IMG/VR virus record: IMGVR_UViG_3300017917_003727
DNA: 64,000 bases
Reading direction: 5' to 3' (one strand)
Source: a virus
Taxonomy: Duplodnaviria; Heunggongvirae; Uroviricota; Caudoviricetes
The position numbers and the translations under genes are program-made. Positions 6,775-41,259 of the stretch are shown here, one piece after another; positions within the stretch are counted from its first letter, which is position 1, and each line of letters starts with the position of its first letter. The notes below the pieces were generated by a model. It worked only from the letters and a program-made list of their open reading frames with translations. It searched no databases and was not told where the DNA came from.

Positions 6775-7446
6775 ATGTATTCTATTGAAATAAAAGATAA
6801 TAAAGATGTTTATGAGTATTGCCGACTGAACGGAATTACCGATATAAACAAATTCATTCAAGAGTGTTTCAAACAAGGATACGACATAAAAAAATATGGA
6901 TTAATAGGAAATACGGGCGGGATTGAAGAAAAACGGGTGGAAATTGAGGTAATTCGTGAAAAACGGGTAGAAGTACCAGTTGAAATAATTAAGGAAGTTG
7001 AAAAAATTGTTGAAGTTCCTATTGAGATAATTAAGGAAATCCCCGTTGATAAAGTTGTGGTTAAAGAAGTGGTAAAAGAAATACCTGTTGAAAAAATTGT
7101 TACAAAAATAGAATATATTAGTGACAATTCACAAGTTGAAGATTTACTTAAAAAGATTGAAGATTTAGAGTCAGATAAGAAAATATTTTCCACTAAGATA
7201 GAAGAATTAGAGGAAGAGAATAAAAAATTTTCCACTATAATCAAAGAAAAAGAAAATATTTTCCAAAATAATGATAAAACACAACAGTTACAAACAACAA
7301 TTCAAACACTAATGAGTAAGATTAGAGAAAAAGATAAAGAAATAACTGACTTAAAAGAACAGGTAAAAAATACAAGAACAAATGATGATGTAAAACCAGC
7401 GGTGTATTTACGTTCATCAAATTTAGGTGATAATTTATACAAATAA
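6775..7446 (+). CDS. Repeat-containing coiled-coil hypothetical protein
   Basis: Tandem peptide repeats (EKRVEIEV / VEVPVEIIKE / KKIFSTKIEEL); repeats also visible at DNA level. Confidence 0.45.
   Translation: MYSIEIKDNKDVYEYCRLNGITDINKFIQECFKQGYDIKKYGLIGNTGGIEEKRVEIEVIREKRVEVPVEIIKEVEKIVEVPIEIIKEIPVDKVVVKEVVKEIPVEKIVTKIEYISDNSQVEDLLKKIEDLESDKKIFSTKIEELEEENKKFSTIIKEKENIFQNNDKTQQLQTTIQTLMSKIREKDKEITDLKEQVKNTRTNDDVKPAVYLRSSNLGDNLYK
6927..7110 (+). repeat. Imperfect in-frame tandem repeats inside a CDS
   Basis: gaaaaacgggtRgaa and gttgaaataattaaggaa units repeated. Confidence 0.4.
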
Positions 7447-35967: not shown

Positions 35968-36756
35968 ATGGAAAATGTATCAGAAGTAGTTGCTGGATTA
36001 CAGGAACTTTTTAATCAAGTGAAATACTTTCACTGGCAAACTAAATCATTTGCTCAACACGAAGCATTCGGAAAAGTATTTGACTCTTTATCAGATTTAA
36101 TTGATGAATTTGTTGAAGTCTCAATGGGTAAATACGGTAGACCATCAACCAAAGGTCAAGAATTAGAGATGTTTGACCTAGAAGATGTAGATATAATGGA
36201 TTGGACTTCAGGTGTTGTTGATTACTTAATATCATTTGATGATATTTTAGATGATGTTGAAGATACTGACCTATTGAACATACGTGATGAAATGATGGCA
36301 CAATTTAATAAATTAAAATACCTATTAACGCTTAAGGAAAGTAAAAGAAAAAAAGTAATAAAACTTACTGAGGCTGATTTATATAGAATTGTTAAAAGAG
36401 TTATAACGGAAGAAAATGAAACTGCGAAAAAACAAATTGTTGGTAGTTTAATGTCAACAGATGGTCAATATGTTAATAGAGTAATAAAAAGTCTTGGACA
36501 AAATTTAAAAACAGAATTATTTAGAATTGTTTATGTTAGTGGTAAAGTAATTAGACAAAAGAACAAACAAATTGCATCTAGAGACATGTACATCGATAAA
36601 AACGAAAATTTTATATTTGTTCCTAAATCAAGTATTACCGTCGCTCTCTTCAAAAAGAAAACTGACCCAAAAAATCCTACAGATTATCCTACAGTACAAC
36701 TTAATTTTGGGGCTGACGAATCAGGTAAACTATACGTAGAAGGTGTTGGGGCATAA
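35968..36756 (+). CDS. Hypothetical protein
   Basis: 262-aa ORF. Confidence 0.4.
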   Translation: MENVSEVVAGLQELFNQVKYFHWQTKSFAQHEAFGKVFDSLSDLIDEFVEVSMGKYGRPSTKGQELEMFDLEDVDIMDWTSGVVDYLISFDDILDDVEDTDLLNIRDEMMAQFNKLKYLLTLKESKRKKVIKLTEADLYRIVKRVITEENETAKKQIVGSLMSTDGQYVNRVIKSLGQNLKTELFRIVYVSGKVIRQKNKQIASRDMYIDKNENFIFVPKSSITVALFKKKTDPKNPTDYPTVQLNFGADESGKLYVEGVGA

Positions 36757-38168
36757 TGGGAAAAACACTAATTAGGGAATCGGGAATTAGAGAAATTAAG
36801 GAACTAGCAAAAAGATATCCTAAAGCTAGAATATATTTTCACCAAGATTTGGATGGTGTTACCACCGCAATTGCAATGAAAAAATATCTTGAATCTAATG
36901 GTATCCAAGTTTCTGGTGTTGAAGTTATACAATATGGTGAAAGAGAATTTGCAATTAGTAAAGTAGATGCTGAAGGTGATACAATGCCAGTTTTAGTTGA
37001 TTTTGCACACGGTAAACCAATGTTCAAAATACATACCGACCACCATGATACTCAAGTAGGTGCTGGCGATACAAAGGCAACATCATTTAAAGAATCACCA
37101 TCAAACGTTAGAACAATTTCACAAGTATTATCACCACGTGATATATTCACAGATACCGATATTAATCTAATATCAACCGTAGACTCGGCTAAATTTAAGG
37201 GATTAAAACCTAAAGATATTATGAATTTTGTTTTCAGACTAGACAAAGAAGCTGGTTTGGAAAAAAACAAATTTGCTATGGGTTTAGTTGCTAACAAACT
37301 TCTTTTAGCGTATAAAAACAAAAAAGGTTTTTTGGAATACTTGGTTATGAATTCTGCACCATCCCTATATTCAATATTAAATAATATTAAAAAATACGCA
37401 CAGGAAAATAATCTATTATCTGTTGATGATATGATTAAAAACCAAGAAAAATATATTGAACAACAAAGAACCAGTGAAGACATAAAGTATGATGATGGTA
37501 TTATAGTACAATATGGTACGGGTTACTTAAGAACTGGTTCATATGATAGATACACACCATTTGAATTACACCCTGATGCTGACTTCTTGGTTATATCATA
37601 CCTCAATGGTATGGTTCAATCATCGTGTAACCCATTTAAAGAAAACAGGGCTTTACCTGGTATTAATTTAAAAAAAATCGCTGATGATGTATTGGAATCG
37701 GGAAGGTCTTGGTTTGAATCTAAGATTGTTCCTATCACAACAATTAAATGGGTTAGTGAAAGTGCTGCAGAAGCCGCGACTTCTGTTGGTTTTACTAGCA
37801 AAGATTTGGAAGCTTTTTATCCTCAAATTGTTACAAAAATTAAAAAAGCAGGTGAAAATGTTTGGGAAATATTTAGTAAGATTATGGACAAACCATATTC
37901 TTTATTAACTGAAAATGAATTAACAGTTTTAGATAGATTTGGGATACCACTTTGGGACATTATTAAAACTAACTCAGGTGGACACAGATGTATTACTAAT
38001 ATATCTGGTTTGAATTACTATGGTAGAGCAAGAAGAAGACCTGTGAAAACTTCATACAAGAGAGTAAAAGATGAAAATGATGAAGGTACTCCATATATTA
38101 GATTGATTAAAAATATACAACAACAATTTGCTGATAAGCTAAGAGAAGAAGTTAAATCGTCAACTTAA
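36756..38168 (+). CDS. DHH/DHHA1-family phosphoesterase (NrnA/RecJ-like)
   Basis: HQDLDG, HTDHHD and C-terminal SGGH motifs. Confidence 0.55.
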   Translation: MGKTLIRESGIREIKELAKRYPKARIYFHQDLDGVTTAIAMKKYLESNGIQVSGVEVIQYGEREFAISKVDAEGDTMPVLVDFAHGKPMFKIHTDHHDTQVGAGDTKATSFKESPSNVRTISQVLSPRDIFTDTDINLISTVDSAKFKGLKPKDIMNFVFRLDKEAGLEKNKFAMGLVANKLLLAYKNKKGFLEYLVMNSAPSLYSILNNIKKYAQENNLLSVDDMIKNQEKYIEQQRTSEDIKYDDGIIVQYGTGYLRTGSYDRYTPFELHPDADFLVISYLNGMVQSSCNPFKENRALPGINLKKIADDVLESGRSWFESKIVPITTIKWVSESAAEAATSVGFTSKDLEAFYPQIVTKIKKAGENVWEIFSKIMDKPYSLLTENELTVLDRFGIPLWDIIKTNSGGHRCITNISGLNYYGRARRRPVKTSYKRVKDENDEGTPYIRLIKNIQQQFADKLREEVKSST

Positions 38169-38505
38169 TATTCTGACCCTCTTCGATTCCACACTCATCA
38201 CAAGTACCTGCGGGTAATTCTAAAACATATTGACCTGAACCATTATAATGTTCACAAGGTTCAGTATTACAAGGTTGACAGTTTTTGTGAATCGAAGTTA
38301 TTTTTCTACTTGGGTCAACAAAAATAATATCCAAAGGTGTTATACAGTTTTTCATCCAAAAACTTTGTTCACCATTTTCAGGCATCATAAATAACATACC
38401 ATTAAAATCTTGGTTAAAATTTTGACCCATCATACCTTTTTGAATAGTCTCAGGTGTCATACAAACTCTAACTTTAAAGATATTATCATTTACTAGTACT
38501 CTCAT
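38152..38505 (-). CDS. DUF192-family protein with Cys-rich C-terminus
   Basis: GMLFMM...FWMKN...PLDIIFVD resembles the DUF192 (COG1430) core. Confidence 0.4.
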   Translation of the reverse strand: MRVLVNDNIFKVRVCMTPETIQKGMMGQNFNQDFNGMLFMMPENGEQSFWMKNCITPLDIIFVDPSRKITSIHKNCQPCNTEPCEHYNGSGQYVLELPAGTCDECGIEEGQNIKLTI

Positions 38506-38525: not shown

Positions 38526-38915
38526 ATGAGTAAATACGCTGGTGTAATTGTTAGGTTTGAGAATAAATGTCTTTTGTGTAAAAGGTCACCACATAACGAC
38601 TTTTTACCAAATGTTTGGTCTATACCTTCAGGACACGTTGAAGAAGATGAAAGTGATATATCCGCAGCGGCAAGAGAGTTCTACGAGGAGACAGGATACA
38701 AAGCTAAAAACTTGAGATACATTTCAAAGATGGAAAGTGCTAATGGTAAAGGTGATGTTGCTCTTTTTTTAATGGACGTGAAAAAACCAATTTACCCTGA
38801 TTTAATGGAAGCTAAAGATGGTCATGAACACAGTGAATGTGATTATTTTTCACTTAAAACAATACCACGTACAACAAAGGAACTTAAAAAAGTTTTAGAA
38901 ATTTTGTTGACGTGA
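38526..38915 (+). CDS. NUDIX hydrolase
   Basis: Nudix box GHVEEDESDISAAAREFYEETG. Confidence 0.65.
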   Translation: MSKYAGVIVRFENKCLLCKRSPHNDFLPNVWSIPSGHVEEDESDISAAAREFYEETGYKAKNLRYISKMESANGKGDVALFLMDVKKPIYPDLMEAKDGHEHSECDYFSLKTIPRTTKELKKVLEILLT

Positions 38916-38992
38916 TTTGACTTTTCAAAAATAAAGCTATATTTATTTATCACAATCCCAAAAAGATTTCTTAAAAAAGTTTTCAGGGGGAC

Positions 38993-39023
38993 TTGACAAA
39001 ATCAAAATCCCGTCGTAACTTTG
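38993..39023 (+). promoter_or_regulatory. Promoter TTGACA-N17-TAACTTTG (best match of the conserved module)
   Basis: Perfect -35-like hexamer, 17-nt spacer, -7 box; no ORF downstream for ~1 kb. Confidence 0.55.
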
Positions 39024-39029
39024 TAATCC

Positions 39030-39977
39030 AATTAAGGGAAAATGTTCTTTAACTTATGAATATGTCCAACACAGGACAAAATATAATGGACCCCTCCATC
39101 TATTTCGTTCAGTGTTGATAACAGACATAATTCGGCGGTTTAGCGTCGATACAAGATAACCCCAGCAATGGGACTATAGGGGCGAGAGTTTCAACAGAAC
39201 GGGTAGCTCGGTGTCACGAAAGTGGCTCACAACTAAACAGATTACCTACGGGTAGGTCCTCATGGGCAACAGCTGAGAGGAAATATTCATTCTGACTACG
39301 TGAGGTGTCAGGATTGAGGTGGAGACACCAACAGGAAAAGGTAAAGGGAATGGTTCGACTCAGACGCCAATCTGATGTAGGGCTAGGTCGCCAGTTCATC
39401 ACAGGTATCCAAAGGGTAACCTACCGATATCAAGTTGAACCGTAGTCTTGGCGGATTACAGAAAGGTGAGTGGTATTTCCTTCTTCAAAAGAGAAGCTAG
39501 CCACCTCAGAGCTCATCTTTCATTACACTCACTATGTTGATTTAATTATGAAAAATTAAAACTACAGAAAAGGAAAAGTCTCTGAGCGGTTAAGCTGAAA
39601 GTCACCTAATTCCTCGAGTGGCGACACTAACGGGGAAATTGACAGGACCCCAAGTCCTTCAGTTTTGACTAAGAAAGTCCTAGTACCTGGGCACGGGTTT
39701 AGGGAGTCCGCAAGATTCCATAGAGACGAGTAAAAGTTGAGTAGGATTAACCGATACGAGTGATTGACGTAAACAATCGGTGATGACTCAATACAGATGG
39801 CAACATTTGTGGACAATGTGAAGAACCTCTAGTAAAGGATAATGTCACGAAAGATGGGTCAAGAATACGTGTAGTCTCAGCGTTTCAGCCTTACCACCCC
39901 TTGGATAGTATCTTTGGGCCGACTTCGAAGTTTCAAATGTACACCCCACGATAAACCAATTTCGTGGGGTTTTTTTA
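39030..39977 (+). ncRNA. Candidate large (~950 nt) structured non-coding RNA of unknown class
   Basis: ORF-free on the sense strand, GC ~50% in a 33% GC genome, consensus promoter and intrinsic terminator on the same strand; not recognised as rRNA, tmRNA, RNase P or group II intron by motif inspection. Confidence 0.5.
39944..39977 (+). terminator. Rho-independent terminator
   Basis: CCCCACGA-taaaccaatt-TCGTGGGG then T8. Confidence 0.65.
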
Positions 39978-39987
39978 TTTTATTATC

Positions 39988-40016
39988 TTGACAATGCGAT
40001 AAATAAGAAATATAAT
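39988..40016 (+). promoter_or_regulatory. Sigma-70-consensus-like promoter TTGACA-N17-TATAAT (followed by TAACTTAG)
   Basis: Exact hexamers at exact spacing, 50 nt upstream of the DGQHR gene. Confidence 0.4.
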
Positions 40017-40066
40017 TAACTTAGAAATTTAAAGACCGATTTTGATTGGTAAAAAAATAAATTAAA

Positions 40067-40924
40067 ATGCTTATGACACAATTAATAAATACTGAGGGGG
40101 CTATTGAGTCCCAGTTTAAAGTGGTTGGTCAAGTTTACGAAACTGACAATTATTCACTTTTTGGTTACATCAAAGGTAACCGCGAAATTAGTTCTTCGAA
40201 CCTAAAAAAAGTTACAGAATCACTAAAGAAAAGAAGAATCAAAGAAACTTCAATTCTTGTTGGTTATGTTCCTGATGACAAGGATGGAAAAATCTTCCAT
40301 ATTTTGGACGGACAACATAGATTTGAGTCCTGTAAAAAATTAGGATTACCTATCAGTTTTGTCGTATATGAGGATTATAATCCAAGTGATATGGATAAAT
40401 CTTTGGGTGTTATTGAACTATTAAACACAGCATCCAAAACTTGGGATGTTAGTAACTTTATGATTTCCAAGGCAATTATTGGAAACGTAAATTATCAAAG
40501 ATATGCGGAACTTTACAATAAGTACCCAATCGAACATGAAGTAATTTTCTACATCTTTGCTGAAATTACAAAAAAGAAAACCAACTTTAACGAGTTCAAA
40601 GAAGGAAAATTTGAACTAACTGAAGAACAAGCGAAAAAGATTGATGAAAAACTTAAGTTTTTGACTAATTTTTCCGCTAAAATAGCAAATAAATCAGGTA
40701 AAAGATATTACTACAAAGCTTTAATAGATGCTTCTATGTCCCCTAATTTATTGGTAGACCGACTTATCGAAAGATTCAACGATGAAAAATTTGACCCATC
40801 ACCTGTCACCAAAATATGTGAAGCTATCAAAATAATTCGTAAAAGATACAATGGTAGAGACAGTCATAAAATGGAACTGATAACTGGTAAACACGATAGA
40901 TTAAAACCAATATTTGTTGGTTAA
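40067..40924 (+). CDS. DGQHR-motif ParB-like domain protein (DndB-related fold)
   Basis: HILDGQHRFES motif in a ParB/Srx-like N-terminal domain. Confidence 0.5.
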   Translation: MLMTQLINTEGAIESQFKVVGQVYETDNYSLFGYIKGNREISSSNLKKVTESLKKRRIKETSILVGYVPDDKDGKIFHILDGQHRFESCKKLGLPISFVVYEDYNPSDMDKSLGVIELLNTASKTWDVSNFMISKAIIGNVNYQRYAELYNKYPIEHEVIFYIFAEITKKKTNFNEFKEGKFELTEEQAKKIDEKLKFLTNFSAKIANKSGKRYYYKALIDASMSPNLLVDRLIERFNDEKFDPSPVTKICEAIKIIRKRYNGRDSHKMELITGKHDRLKPIFVG

Positions 40925-40931
40925 AATAAAA

Positions 40932-40956
40932 CCCCTCACAAACGAGGGGTTTTTTA
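40932..40956 (+). terminator. Rho-independent terminator
   Basis: CCCCTC-acaaac-GAGGGG then T6. Confidence 0.6.
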
Positions 40957-40957
40957 T

Positions 40958-40988
40958 TTGGTAATATCAAAACTTTTTTATAACTTTG
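40958..40988 (+). promoter_or_regulatory. Promoter TTGGTA-N17-TAACTTTG, ATG 4 nt downstream
   Basis: Conserved module. Confidence 0.5.
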
Positions 40989-40992
40989 TATT

Positions 40993-41259
40993 ATGACTCA
41001 CTACCAACTCAATTTTGTACATCCTGTGTTAGGTGAATTGACATCTCCAACATTCACCGACCAAACACAATTCCGTATATTCTGTAAGATGGTTCAGGCT
41101 TCCTTGGCTTTGAAACAAGACCTTACAACCTATGACGCACAGGATTTGTTTATCCATATTCCTTACAAGGTATTGGTTGAATCTGTTGTTGTATCTAAAG
41201 TAAATGGGTTGAACTTGGCTGACTACGTAAAAGAAAAAGCAAAGATAGCTACTCAATAA
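40993..41259 (+). CDS. Hypothetical protein (leaderless-type start)
   Basis: 88-aa ORF. Confidence 0.4.
   Translation: MTHYQLNFVHPVLGELTSPTFTDQTQFRIFCKMVQASLALKQDLTTYDAQDLFIHIPYKVLVESVVVSKVNGLNLADYVKEKAKIATQ

Follow-up and report, generated by a model that had tools for sequence, protein, structure and literature searches.

The question raised by this locus is what, if not a protein, is encoded between a NUDIX gene (38526-38915) and the next plus-strand gene (40067-40924) of a viral DNA of 64 kilobases (kb), the whole of which we refer to as the window. An inspection of the letters alone (below, the sequence-only reading) had proposed that positions 38993-39977 hold an undescribed large structured RNA. 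We find that this stretch does contain a clearly delimited plus-strand gene, whose product is a large structured RNA, and encodes no protein. The family is a known one: with a probability of about 0.96, positions ~39030-39976 (+) are a GOLLD RNA gene in an uncultured, probably large phage. The locus is a further member of the GOLLD family, not a new RNA class.

The assignment was obtained by scanning the whole 64 kb against Rfam with cmscan at the gathering threshold. A single match was returned, to GOLLD (RF02032) at 39461-39883 (+), with a score of 299.4 bits (gathering score 150; E 1.1e-84) over model positions 1-416 of 416, not truncated. Three other viral GOLLDs, checked by the same scan, gave lower scores of 180-241 bits. 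GOLLD RNA was first described by Weinberg et al. 2009, and the RF02032 model covers just its universally conserved 3' half. In the published layout of the family a variable 5' region, ~420 nucleotides (nt) long, is accompanied by a 3' region of ~413 nt and by a linker that is disordered (residues 497-538 of the 833-nt env-38 RNA, PMC12286853). The layout in the window, with a 5' domain at 39133-39460, a 3' domain at 39461-39883 and a linker at ~39524-39571, fits this description.

We weighed this assignment against the idea of an undescribed class of large structured RNA, to which the sequence-only reading had leaned, citing GOLLD and ROOL as mere precedents. Two observations speak for that idea: the element has no nucleotide match in 50,697 phage records, and its 5' half has neither an Rfam family match nor similarity to the 5' domain of env-38, a marine metagenomic GOLLD. 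However, the 3' half matches the GOLLD model over its full length, with a score double the curated threshold, and the linker, the L14, L20 and L21a/b elements and the long-range helices all stand in register with the family model. A confident Rfam match was what the sequence-only reading had itself named as fatal to novelty, and with the 299.4-bit match to RF02032 the claim of a new RNA falls; we regard a new class as extremely improbable. Of the two precedents, one turned out to be the element's own family and the other found no match. Indeed, a lenient Rfam scan of 38900-40100, with E up to 10, returned no ROOL, HEARO, OLE, group I or II intron, RNase P RNA or transfer-messenger RNA (tmRNA), and ARAGORN detected no tmRNA in the window. 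The earlier statement that the element does not look like ribosomal RNA, tmRNA, RNase P RNA or a group II intron agrees with the lack of any tmRNA, RNase P or intron signal in these scans. Sub-threshold Rfam matches at 39883-39981 (trpB motif, anti-hemB, His leader) were weak, driven by the terminator and far below threshold, and were rejected.

The proposal of a large non-coding plus-strand RNA with extensive structure is borne out by the fold z-score of the element, by covariation and by the lack of a credible plus-strand open reading frame (ORF). Between the flanking genes the plus strand has no ATG-start ORF of at least 30 amino acids (aa), and its longest stop-free run is 55 codons; the sole plus-strand ORFs listed in the stretch are of 46 aa (GTG start) and 30 aa (TTG start). 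Compared with dinucleotide shuffles, as the sequence-only reading had advised, the plus strand folds with z = -3.1 and none of 20 shuffles was as good, against z = -0.8 for the minus strand. The G+C content is 0.432 over 38993-39977, 0.451 over the RNA body (39133-39883) and 0.535 at its peak (39180-39280), against 0.314 in the remaining window. The region ranks as the highest-G+C 985-nt sliding window of the 64 kb (mean 0.315, standard deviation 0.025, maximum 0.431 at 38951). The enrichment noticed earlier is therefore real, as is the ~54% reported for 39180-39280. The overall level had been put too high, at roughly 50%, when it is 43-45% and reaches 50% or more only around 39180-39400; the background, given as ~33%, measured 0.314.

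Homologues were needed for covariation analysis. The BLASTN route recommended by the sequence-only reading yielded none: neither the element nor the 20 kb around it matched any of the 50,697 records of the phage collection by blastn or megablast. The homologues came from motif and profile scans of IMG/VR, where loci (designated L001 and so on) were gathered by a core motif, AAAAGTCT-N15-GAAAG-N4-CTAAT, and by a 5'-domain motif, ACAACTAAACANANTACCTAC. The window itself is absent from both the phage collection and the IMG/VR set searched, and an exact 30-mer from the 5' domain had no match in IMG/VR. Three of the 21 core-motif loci (L004, L006 and L019) were not GOLLD by Rfam and were discarded as chance matches. 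Two contigs of Bacteroidota metagenome-assembled genomes (MAGs) matching GACAYCAAYAGGAAAAGGTA were likewise rejected as chance 20-mers, having no flanking homology where ~4 chance matches were expected in 596 gigabases. The published GOLLD alignment includes a full-length match in a Flavobacteriia MAG contig.

In 12 loci nhmmer aligned the 5' part of the element, with scores of up to 231 bits, to the DNA that immediately precedes the GOLLD core, and 25 loci were matched by a full-length profile. The resulting alignment, A2, contains 21 non-redundant sequences with contiguous homology from promoter to terminator. Homologues of the 5' domain exist in 20 or more non-redundant viral contigs, and in each they immediately precede a GOLLD 3' domain. 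On these 21 sequences we tested a structure of 231 pairs, composed of the RNAalifold consensus and two loop-loop contacts added by hand. The structure is 96.1% paired, and sliding the 3' partners by 1-3 columns lowers this value to 36-46%; double-sided changes occur at 104 pairs (18-30 when slid), and the covariation score is 0.405 (0.06-0.10 when slid). None of 500 shuffles reached the observed covariation values, to which the 5' and 3' domains both contribute. Covariation, which the sequence-only reading had proposed to examine, exceeds both slid and shuffled controls. One helix picked out by eye in the sequence-only reading, GGTGTC...GACACC (39304-39309/39324-39329), is not the pairing that evolution supports: covariation favours a local hairpin, GGUG-GAGA-CACC (39318-39329), with GUGUCAGG pairing to an upstream strand (helices 11 and 12).

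The same relatives bear on a second alternative, that the G+C enrichment reflects one or two small proteins encoded on the minus strand (39214-39402, 62 aa; 39562-39816, 84 aa). Both ORFs do exist, but they start with GTG or TTG, and their frames are interrupted in the relatives. In the nearest one, L020, the first frame has 3 extra in-frame stops and the second has 1; across L020, L018 and L016 there are 1-3 extra stops in the same frames, and the distant clade has up to 5. Substitutions keep base pairs, not codons. Because of the extra in-frame stops in the nearest relatives we conclude that these ORFs are not genes, and we give virtually no credence to a coding origin of the enrichment. Conservation of these frames, which the sequence-only reading had named as a reason to abandon the RNA, is not what the relatives show, and the GOLLD assignment stands.

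The GOLLD RNA appears to be expressed as its own unit, bounded by two signals:

38993-39023 (+): promoter-like site, TTGACA-N17-TAACTTTG, an exact match, with a -7 box of the Bacteroidota TAnnTTTG type.
39944-39976 (+): intrinsic terminator, CCCCACGA-(10-nt loop)-TCGTGGGG-T7, with a G+C-rich stem of 8-9 base pairs (bp), a U7 tail and a stability of -16 kcal/mol.

The promoter had been described earlier as the best copy of a conserved one. Its exact match is confirmed, and conservation is found in position, not in recurrence: with at most 1 mismatch the motif has 5 matches in the window against 2.0 expected, a number equalled by 7 of 100 shuffles and not significant, whereas TTGAC-N16-17-TAnnTTTG stands at the equivalent upstream site in 12 of 16 non-redundant relatives, with a spacer whose sequence diverges. 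It is therefore this conserved placement ahead of homologous RNAs that speaks for a promoter. The -7 consensus of Flavobacterium and Bacteroides reads TAnnTTTG (PMC7641319), and this promoter type is the sole indication of a host, suggesting Bacteroidota. The strong terminator announced at 39944-39977 is present, although its run of T is T7 rather than T8; the scanning tool had missed it because its loop limit is 8 nt. A near-identical terminator occurs in L031, L026, L023 and L016, and all other relatives have a different G+C-rich hairpin with a T-run at the same place. With a promoter motif of conserved position in most relatives and a terminator in all of them, the idea of an independent transcription unit is supported. 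Transcription would start at ~39030 and end at ~39976, and the predicted stand-alone transcript of ~950 nt agrees with the length given by the sequence-only reading. The scan also flagged as terminator-like a hairpin with a U-rich tail at 39644-39658, a false positive that is a conserved internal GOLLD helix (L20, below).

These boundaries also speak to a third alternative, in which the ParB-like gene downstream, which contains a DGQHR motif, has this RNA as a long structured 5' leader or as a cis-regulator. The RNA does lie on the same strand, immediately upstream of that ORF (40067-40924). However, the strong terminator (39944-39976) and, after it, a perfect sigma-70-type promoter, TTGACA-N17-TATAAT (39988-40016), separate the RNA from the ParB-like gene, and the gene is not conserved next to the RNA: in L026 the sequence runs straight to a homologue of the ORF at 40993, and L020 has other genes there. 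A leader or regulatory role towards this gene is hardly believable, and we retain a free-standing GOLLD RNA.

The 5' part of the predicted transcript contains the following features:

39030-39049 (+): predicted transcript 5' end, a small weak hairpin (UCC-AAUUAA-GGA) followed by a conserved GUUCUUU (39043-39049), recognised from the relatives.
39060-39129 (+): clade-specific structured leader of ~70 nt, shared with L031, L026 and L027; RNAfold gives the same fold.
39133-39460 (+): GOLLD 5' domain, the variable half, with ~16 helices, delimited by nhmmer, the full-length profile and covariation.
39365-39370 (+): CGCCAA, loop of the hairpin 39359-39377 and L10-like kissing-loop partner, perfectly complementary to 39448-39453.
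39448-39453 (+): UUGGCG, loop of the last 5'-domain hairpin (39442-39459) and L12-like kissing-loop partner.

The small hairpin and GTTCTTT follow the promoter in nearly all relatives, GUUCUUU at a fixed distance from it. We sought a pairing partner for GUUCUUU and for the C-rich leader loop and identified none; the candidates (AGGGGA at ~39176) are invariant, as is GUUCUUU itself. The leader is built from the stems AUAUGUC/GACAUA (39060-39066/39124-39129) and CAACAC/GUGUUG (39067-39072/39112-39117) and an inner hairpin, AUGGA-CCCC-UCCAU (39086-39099). Its second stem shows compensatory changes, to CAAUUC/GAAUUG in L031 and L026 and to CAACUG/CAGUUG in L027. Other clades have at this position a shorter hairpin with a C-rich loop, or nothing.

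In the 5' domain proper, helices 2-19 are 84-100% paired, with compensatory changes in most. One long-range feature is the 6-bp kissing loop between the L10-like and L12-like loops: its column pairs are 99.2% paired in the 21 sequences and three of the six covary (CG in 12, GC in 8 and UA in 1; GC in 13 and CG in 8; AU in 8, CG in 8 and UG in 4), with a third variant in L034 (CUGC/GCAG). The position of the L12-like loop, on the last hairpin before the 3' domain, matches L12 of both solved GOLLD cages. A further 6-bp long-range helix is predicted from a hairpin loop, GGUUUAG (39138-39144), which is perfectly complementary to CUAAAC (39233-39238) ~95 nt downstream. Both strands are invariant in all 19 sequences with letters there (helix 2), so that covariation neither supports nor refutes it. 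An early hairpin loop in the env-38 5' domain has GGUUUAG as well, the sole motif that we recognised in both 5' domains.

The 3' part is arranged as in the Rfam family:

39461-39883 (+): GOLLD conserved 3' domain (RF02032 positions 1-416), by cmscan.
39483-39493 (+): L14 loop, CUUCAAAAGAG; its adenosines are conserved, and all 21 sequences have the CAAAAG core.
39524-39571 (+): J13/15, an A/U-rich variable linker at unpaired, poorly conserved RF02032 positions, varying in sequence and length among the 21 relatives.
39572-39573 (+): GG of J13/15, pairing with the L20 loop (G39572-C39651 and G39573-C39650).
39644-39658 (+): L20 hairpin, AGGAC-CCCAA-GUCCU, from the Rfam model and the relatives.
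39685-39698 (+): L21a hairpin, ACCUG-GGCA-CGGGU, with a self-complementary GC core in its loop.
39702-39719 (+): L21b hairpin, GGGAGUC-CGCAA-GAUUCC, likewise with a self-complementary GC core in its loop.
39792-39811 (+): L24-like hairpin, UACAGAUG-GCAA-CAUUUGUG, with a GNRA-type loop; GGCAAC is invariant and four stem pairs are compensatory (helix 37).
39897-39918 (+): 3' hairpin specific to the clade, following the GOLLD core and preceding the terminator; seen in the window, L031, L026, L023, L020, L024, L027 and L016.

Helices 20-39 of this domain are 83-100% paired with many compensatory changes, and the long-range helix that encloses P16-P21 (A2 columns 637-646 x 794-803) is 98.5% paired with four covarying pairs. 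Of the two pairs between J13/15 and L20, one (columns 623 x 700) is G-C in the clade of the window (8 sequences) and C-G in the others (13), and the other (622 x 701) is G-C in 20 of 21. The GC core of L21a is kept in all relatives (GGCA, GGCC, UGCA, CGCA). The L21b loop is CGCAA in most and CCGAA in L003 and in the L025 group, a GC-to-CG swap in two sub-clades. The extra 3' hairpin shows compensatory stem changes, for example ACAUAGGAU/AUCCUAUGU in L020 and UUCAAGGAU/AUCCUUGAA in L031; the other clade lacks it, and there the terminator directly follows the core.

The A-rich linker that the sequence-only reading had placed near 39520-39560 is real and corresponds to J13/15 of GOLLD, and its picture of two domains joined by a linker matches the GOLLD 5' and 3' domains. 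The same reading had also entertained two separate RNAs, one ending at ~39520 and one starting at ~39560. This would be in keeping with the structural independence of the two domains in the solved cage, with an unstructured, variable linker and with the tRNA that some GOLLDs (e.g. L005) carry in the linker, where it could potentially be excised by tRNA-processing enzymes. The linker, however, has no promoter- or terminator-like site in the window and no tRNA to direct cleavage; the halves are contiguous in every full-length homologue; the Rfam model spans the linker, with P13 closing across 39461-39523 before it and later helices pairing back; and the GOLLD RNAs seen by cryo-electron microscopy (cryo-EM) are single chains. 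We therefore consider two RNAs very unlikely and the linker to be the intramolecular J13/15 of a single GOLLD RNA.

Cryo-EM has shown that GOLLD RNAs need no protein to build closed dihedral cages, which are 14-mers in env-38 (PDB 9MEE; Kretsch et al. 2025, PMC12286853) and 12-mers in the Streptococcus agalactiae (Sag) GOLLD (PDB 9L0R, reviewed in PMC12990946). The cage contacts are an L10-L12' kissing loop, a J13/15(L15)-L20' kissing loop, L14 adenosines docked into P21', L21-L21'' kissing loops and the L24 tetraloop. In env-38 they form the bridges B4 (L10-L12'), B6 (L14-P21'), B7 (J13/15-L20) and B8/B9 (the self-complementary L21a/L21b, which join the half-shells), and linker residues 497-538 are disordered inside the cage (PMC12286853). 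The L24 tetraloop/receptor contact was reported for the Sag cage (PMC12990946), and the J13/15-L20 kissing loop was first found by covariation in 2009. All published cage-contact elements are present in the window, and two of them, L10-like x L12-like and J13/15 x L20, covary.

A cage can thus be proposed for this RNA as well. Host RNA polymerase would start at the Bacteroidota-type promoter and stop at the terminator, releasing an RNA of ~950 nt whose two domains would fold separately, with a floppy A/U-rich linker between them. During infection ~10-14 copies of this RNA would assemble by themselves, with no protein, into a closed homo-oligomeric cage of dihedral symmetry. Assembly would use the L10-L12' and J13/15-L20' kissing loops and the insertion of L14 adenosines into P21'; the self-complementary L21a and L21b loops would join the two half-shells, with the linker pointing into the cavity. 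Because the contact elements are present, because L10-like x L12-like and J13/15 x L20 covary and because L21b shows a GC-to-CG swap, we consider it likely that the window RNA also forms a cage. The two contacts recovered by covariation in 21 sequences also give reason to think that distant GOLLD sub-types have cage assembly in common. Proposed roles for GOLLD cages are the encapsulation or sequestration of tRNA, ribosomal or other cargo in lytic growth (PMC12286853, PMC12990946).

Several points weigh against the interpretation as a cage-forming GOLLD. The 5' domain has no nhmmer similarity to that of env-38, and nhmmer of the env-38 construct against the window halves and all loci gave nothing significant; the env-38 query text comprised 815 of 833 nt, and features were mapped via the Rfam model and helix-relative positions, not residue numbers. 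The 5'-domain helices need not match the published P1-P12 one to one. A covariance model (R1) of the L10-L12 module scored at most 3.4 bits in three further GOLLD sub-types confirmed by Rfam, whether or not filters were applied, a result still compatible with deep homology because the model is narrow (effective sequence number 1.15). ARAGORN found no tRNA gene in the 64-kb window, including the linker 39524-39571. Transcription, transcript ends and oligomerisation are all things that we infer from the letters and their relatives, and sequence alone cannot assign a covarying kissing loop as intra- or intermolecular. Nor can the stoichiometry be predicted, since it depends on details of the 5' domain and the solved cages are a 12-mer and a 14-mer (PMC12990946). 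The dissimilarity of the 5' domains is consistent with the documented variability of the GOLLD 5' domain.

Compared with the solved cages, the window RNA resembles env-38 in being a two-domain RNA of ~0.85 kb, with a 5' domain of ~330-430 nt and a 3' domain of ~420 nt, in a phage context. It shares with env-38 the full-length 3'-domain match, an A/U-rich, disordered linker that follows the first helix of the 3' domain, the CAAAAG of L14, the J13/15-L20 complementarity, the self-complementary L21a and L21b and a 6-bp kissing loop with the last 5'-domain hairpin. Unlike env-38, it has a 70-nt structured leader, an extra 3' hairpin, a Bacteroidota-type promoter and no tRNA nearby. For L11a of env-38 a conserved GAAA loop has been reported. 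The window has a hairpin with a GAAA loop at 39210-39230, but the loops of sister clades are different, and the feature is not conserved across the clade. With the Sag GOLLD the element shares the family and the contact classes (L10-L12', L15-L20', L14 into P21', L21-L21'', L24 tetraloop); Sag lacks P9, P11a-c and P21b, whereas the window RNA has both L21 hairpins, and the host phylum and 5' domain differ. ROOL (RF03087) is a functional analogue: it too is large, ornate and carried by phages, is often near tRNAs and forms a cage of RNA alone, but it is unrelated in sequence and fold and matched nothing in 38900-40100 at E up to 10.

The lack of a tRNA deserves consideration, since GOLLD "often" adjoins tRNAs, an association that is frequent, not obligatory. 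Six loci with the same 5'-domain type (L001, L009, L012, L013, L014 and L021) have a tRNA-Met immediately upstream (3292-3364 in L001), and then a promoter-like site of their own; no tRNA is present in the window, L020 or L016. env-38 is described as lying downstream of a Met-tRNA, like these six sister loci. In L005, which carries another GOLLD sub-type (6954-7394, minus strand, 226 bits), a tRNA-Gln lies in the J13/15 linker at 7252-7324; an embedded-tRNA arrangement was described for the Mycolicibacterium GOLLD (PMC12990946).

GOLLD RNAs are among the largest and most elaborate non-coding RNAs of bacteria and phages, and form protein-free nanocages larger than the ribosome. Conceptually the locus adds little to this picture; it provides a clean, delimited GOLLD with its own promoter and terminator and no neighbouring or embedded tRNA, from a lineage that is related to huge phages and whose hosts are probably Bacteroidota. 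It argues that tRNA linkage is not essential to GOLLD's role. More tentatively, and with doubt prevailing, the cage of this clade, whose uncultured and often very large phages apparently infect Bacteroidota, may differ in stoichiometry or geometry from the solved 12-mers and 14-mers, given a 5' domain that neither sequence nor a covariance model recognises in other sub-types, an added three-helix leader and an added 3' hairpin; and this unit, being tRNA-free and self-contained in its transcription, may show a tRNA-independent function of GOLLD. If true, GOLLD function would not depend on linked tRNAs.

The genomic setting is that of a phage: the window has PHROG matches, and its IMG/VR relatives lie on viral contigs of up to 295 kb, those with the same GOLLD clade on contigs of 233 and 295 kb. 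Upstream of the RNA are genes for a DUF5856 protein, a DHH-like protein, DUF192 (opposite strand) and NUDIX, and the order DHH-like/DUF192/NUDIX/GOLLD is kept in L020, a 295-kb viral contig. The DHH-like protein (36756-38168, 470 aa, with a RecJ-like N-terminus) has its best matches in uncultured phages of 634-735 kb (34-38% identity over 98-99% of the length), and the window may come from a lineage related to these "huge" phages. No GOLLD was found within 8 kb of the syntenic DHH-like gene in two of them, of 634 kb and 642 kb. The DUF192 gene (38152-38505, minus strand) is convergent with the DHH-like gene and overlaps its 3' end by 17 nt, an arrangement also seen on a 2.4-kb Logan contig with an identical NUDIX protein; a contig of run SRR5831666 carries the flanking NUDIX gene.

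Downstream of the RNA, positions 39984-40960 form a self-contained cassette with the TTGACA-N17-TATAAT promoter at 39988-40016, the ParB-like gene and a terminator at 40928-40953. The ParB-like protein (285 aa, with the DGQHR motif) matches phrog_12305 (E 2e-19) and has no Pfam match at E < 0.01. The cassette is absent in L026, where the GOLLD terminator is followed by a homologue of the 88-aa ORF at 40993-41259, and other genes take its place in L020; the site that follows GOLLD seems to be a hotspot of variable insertion.

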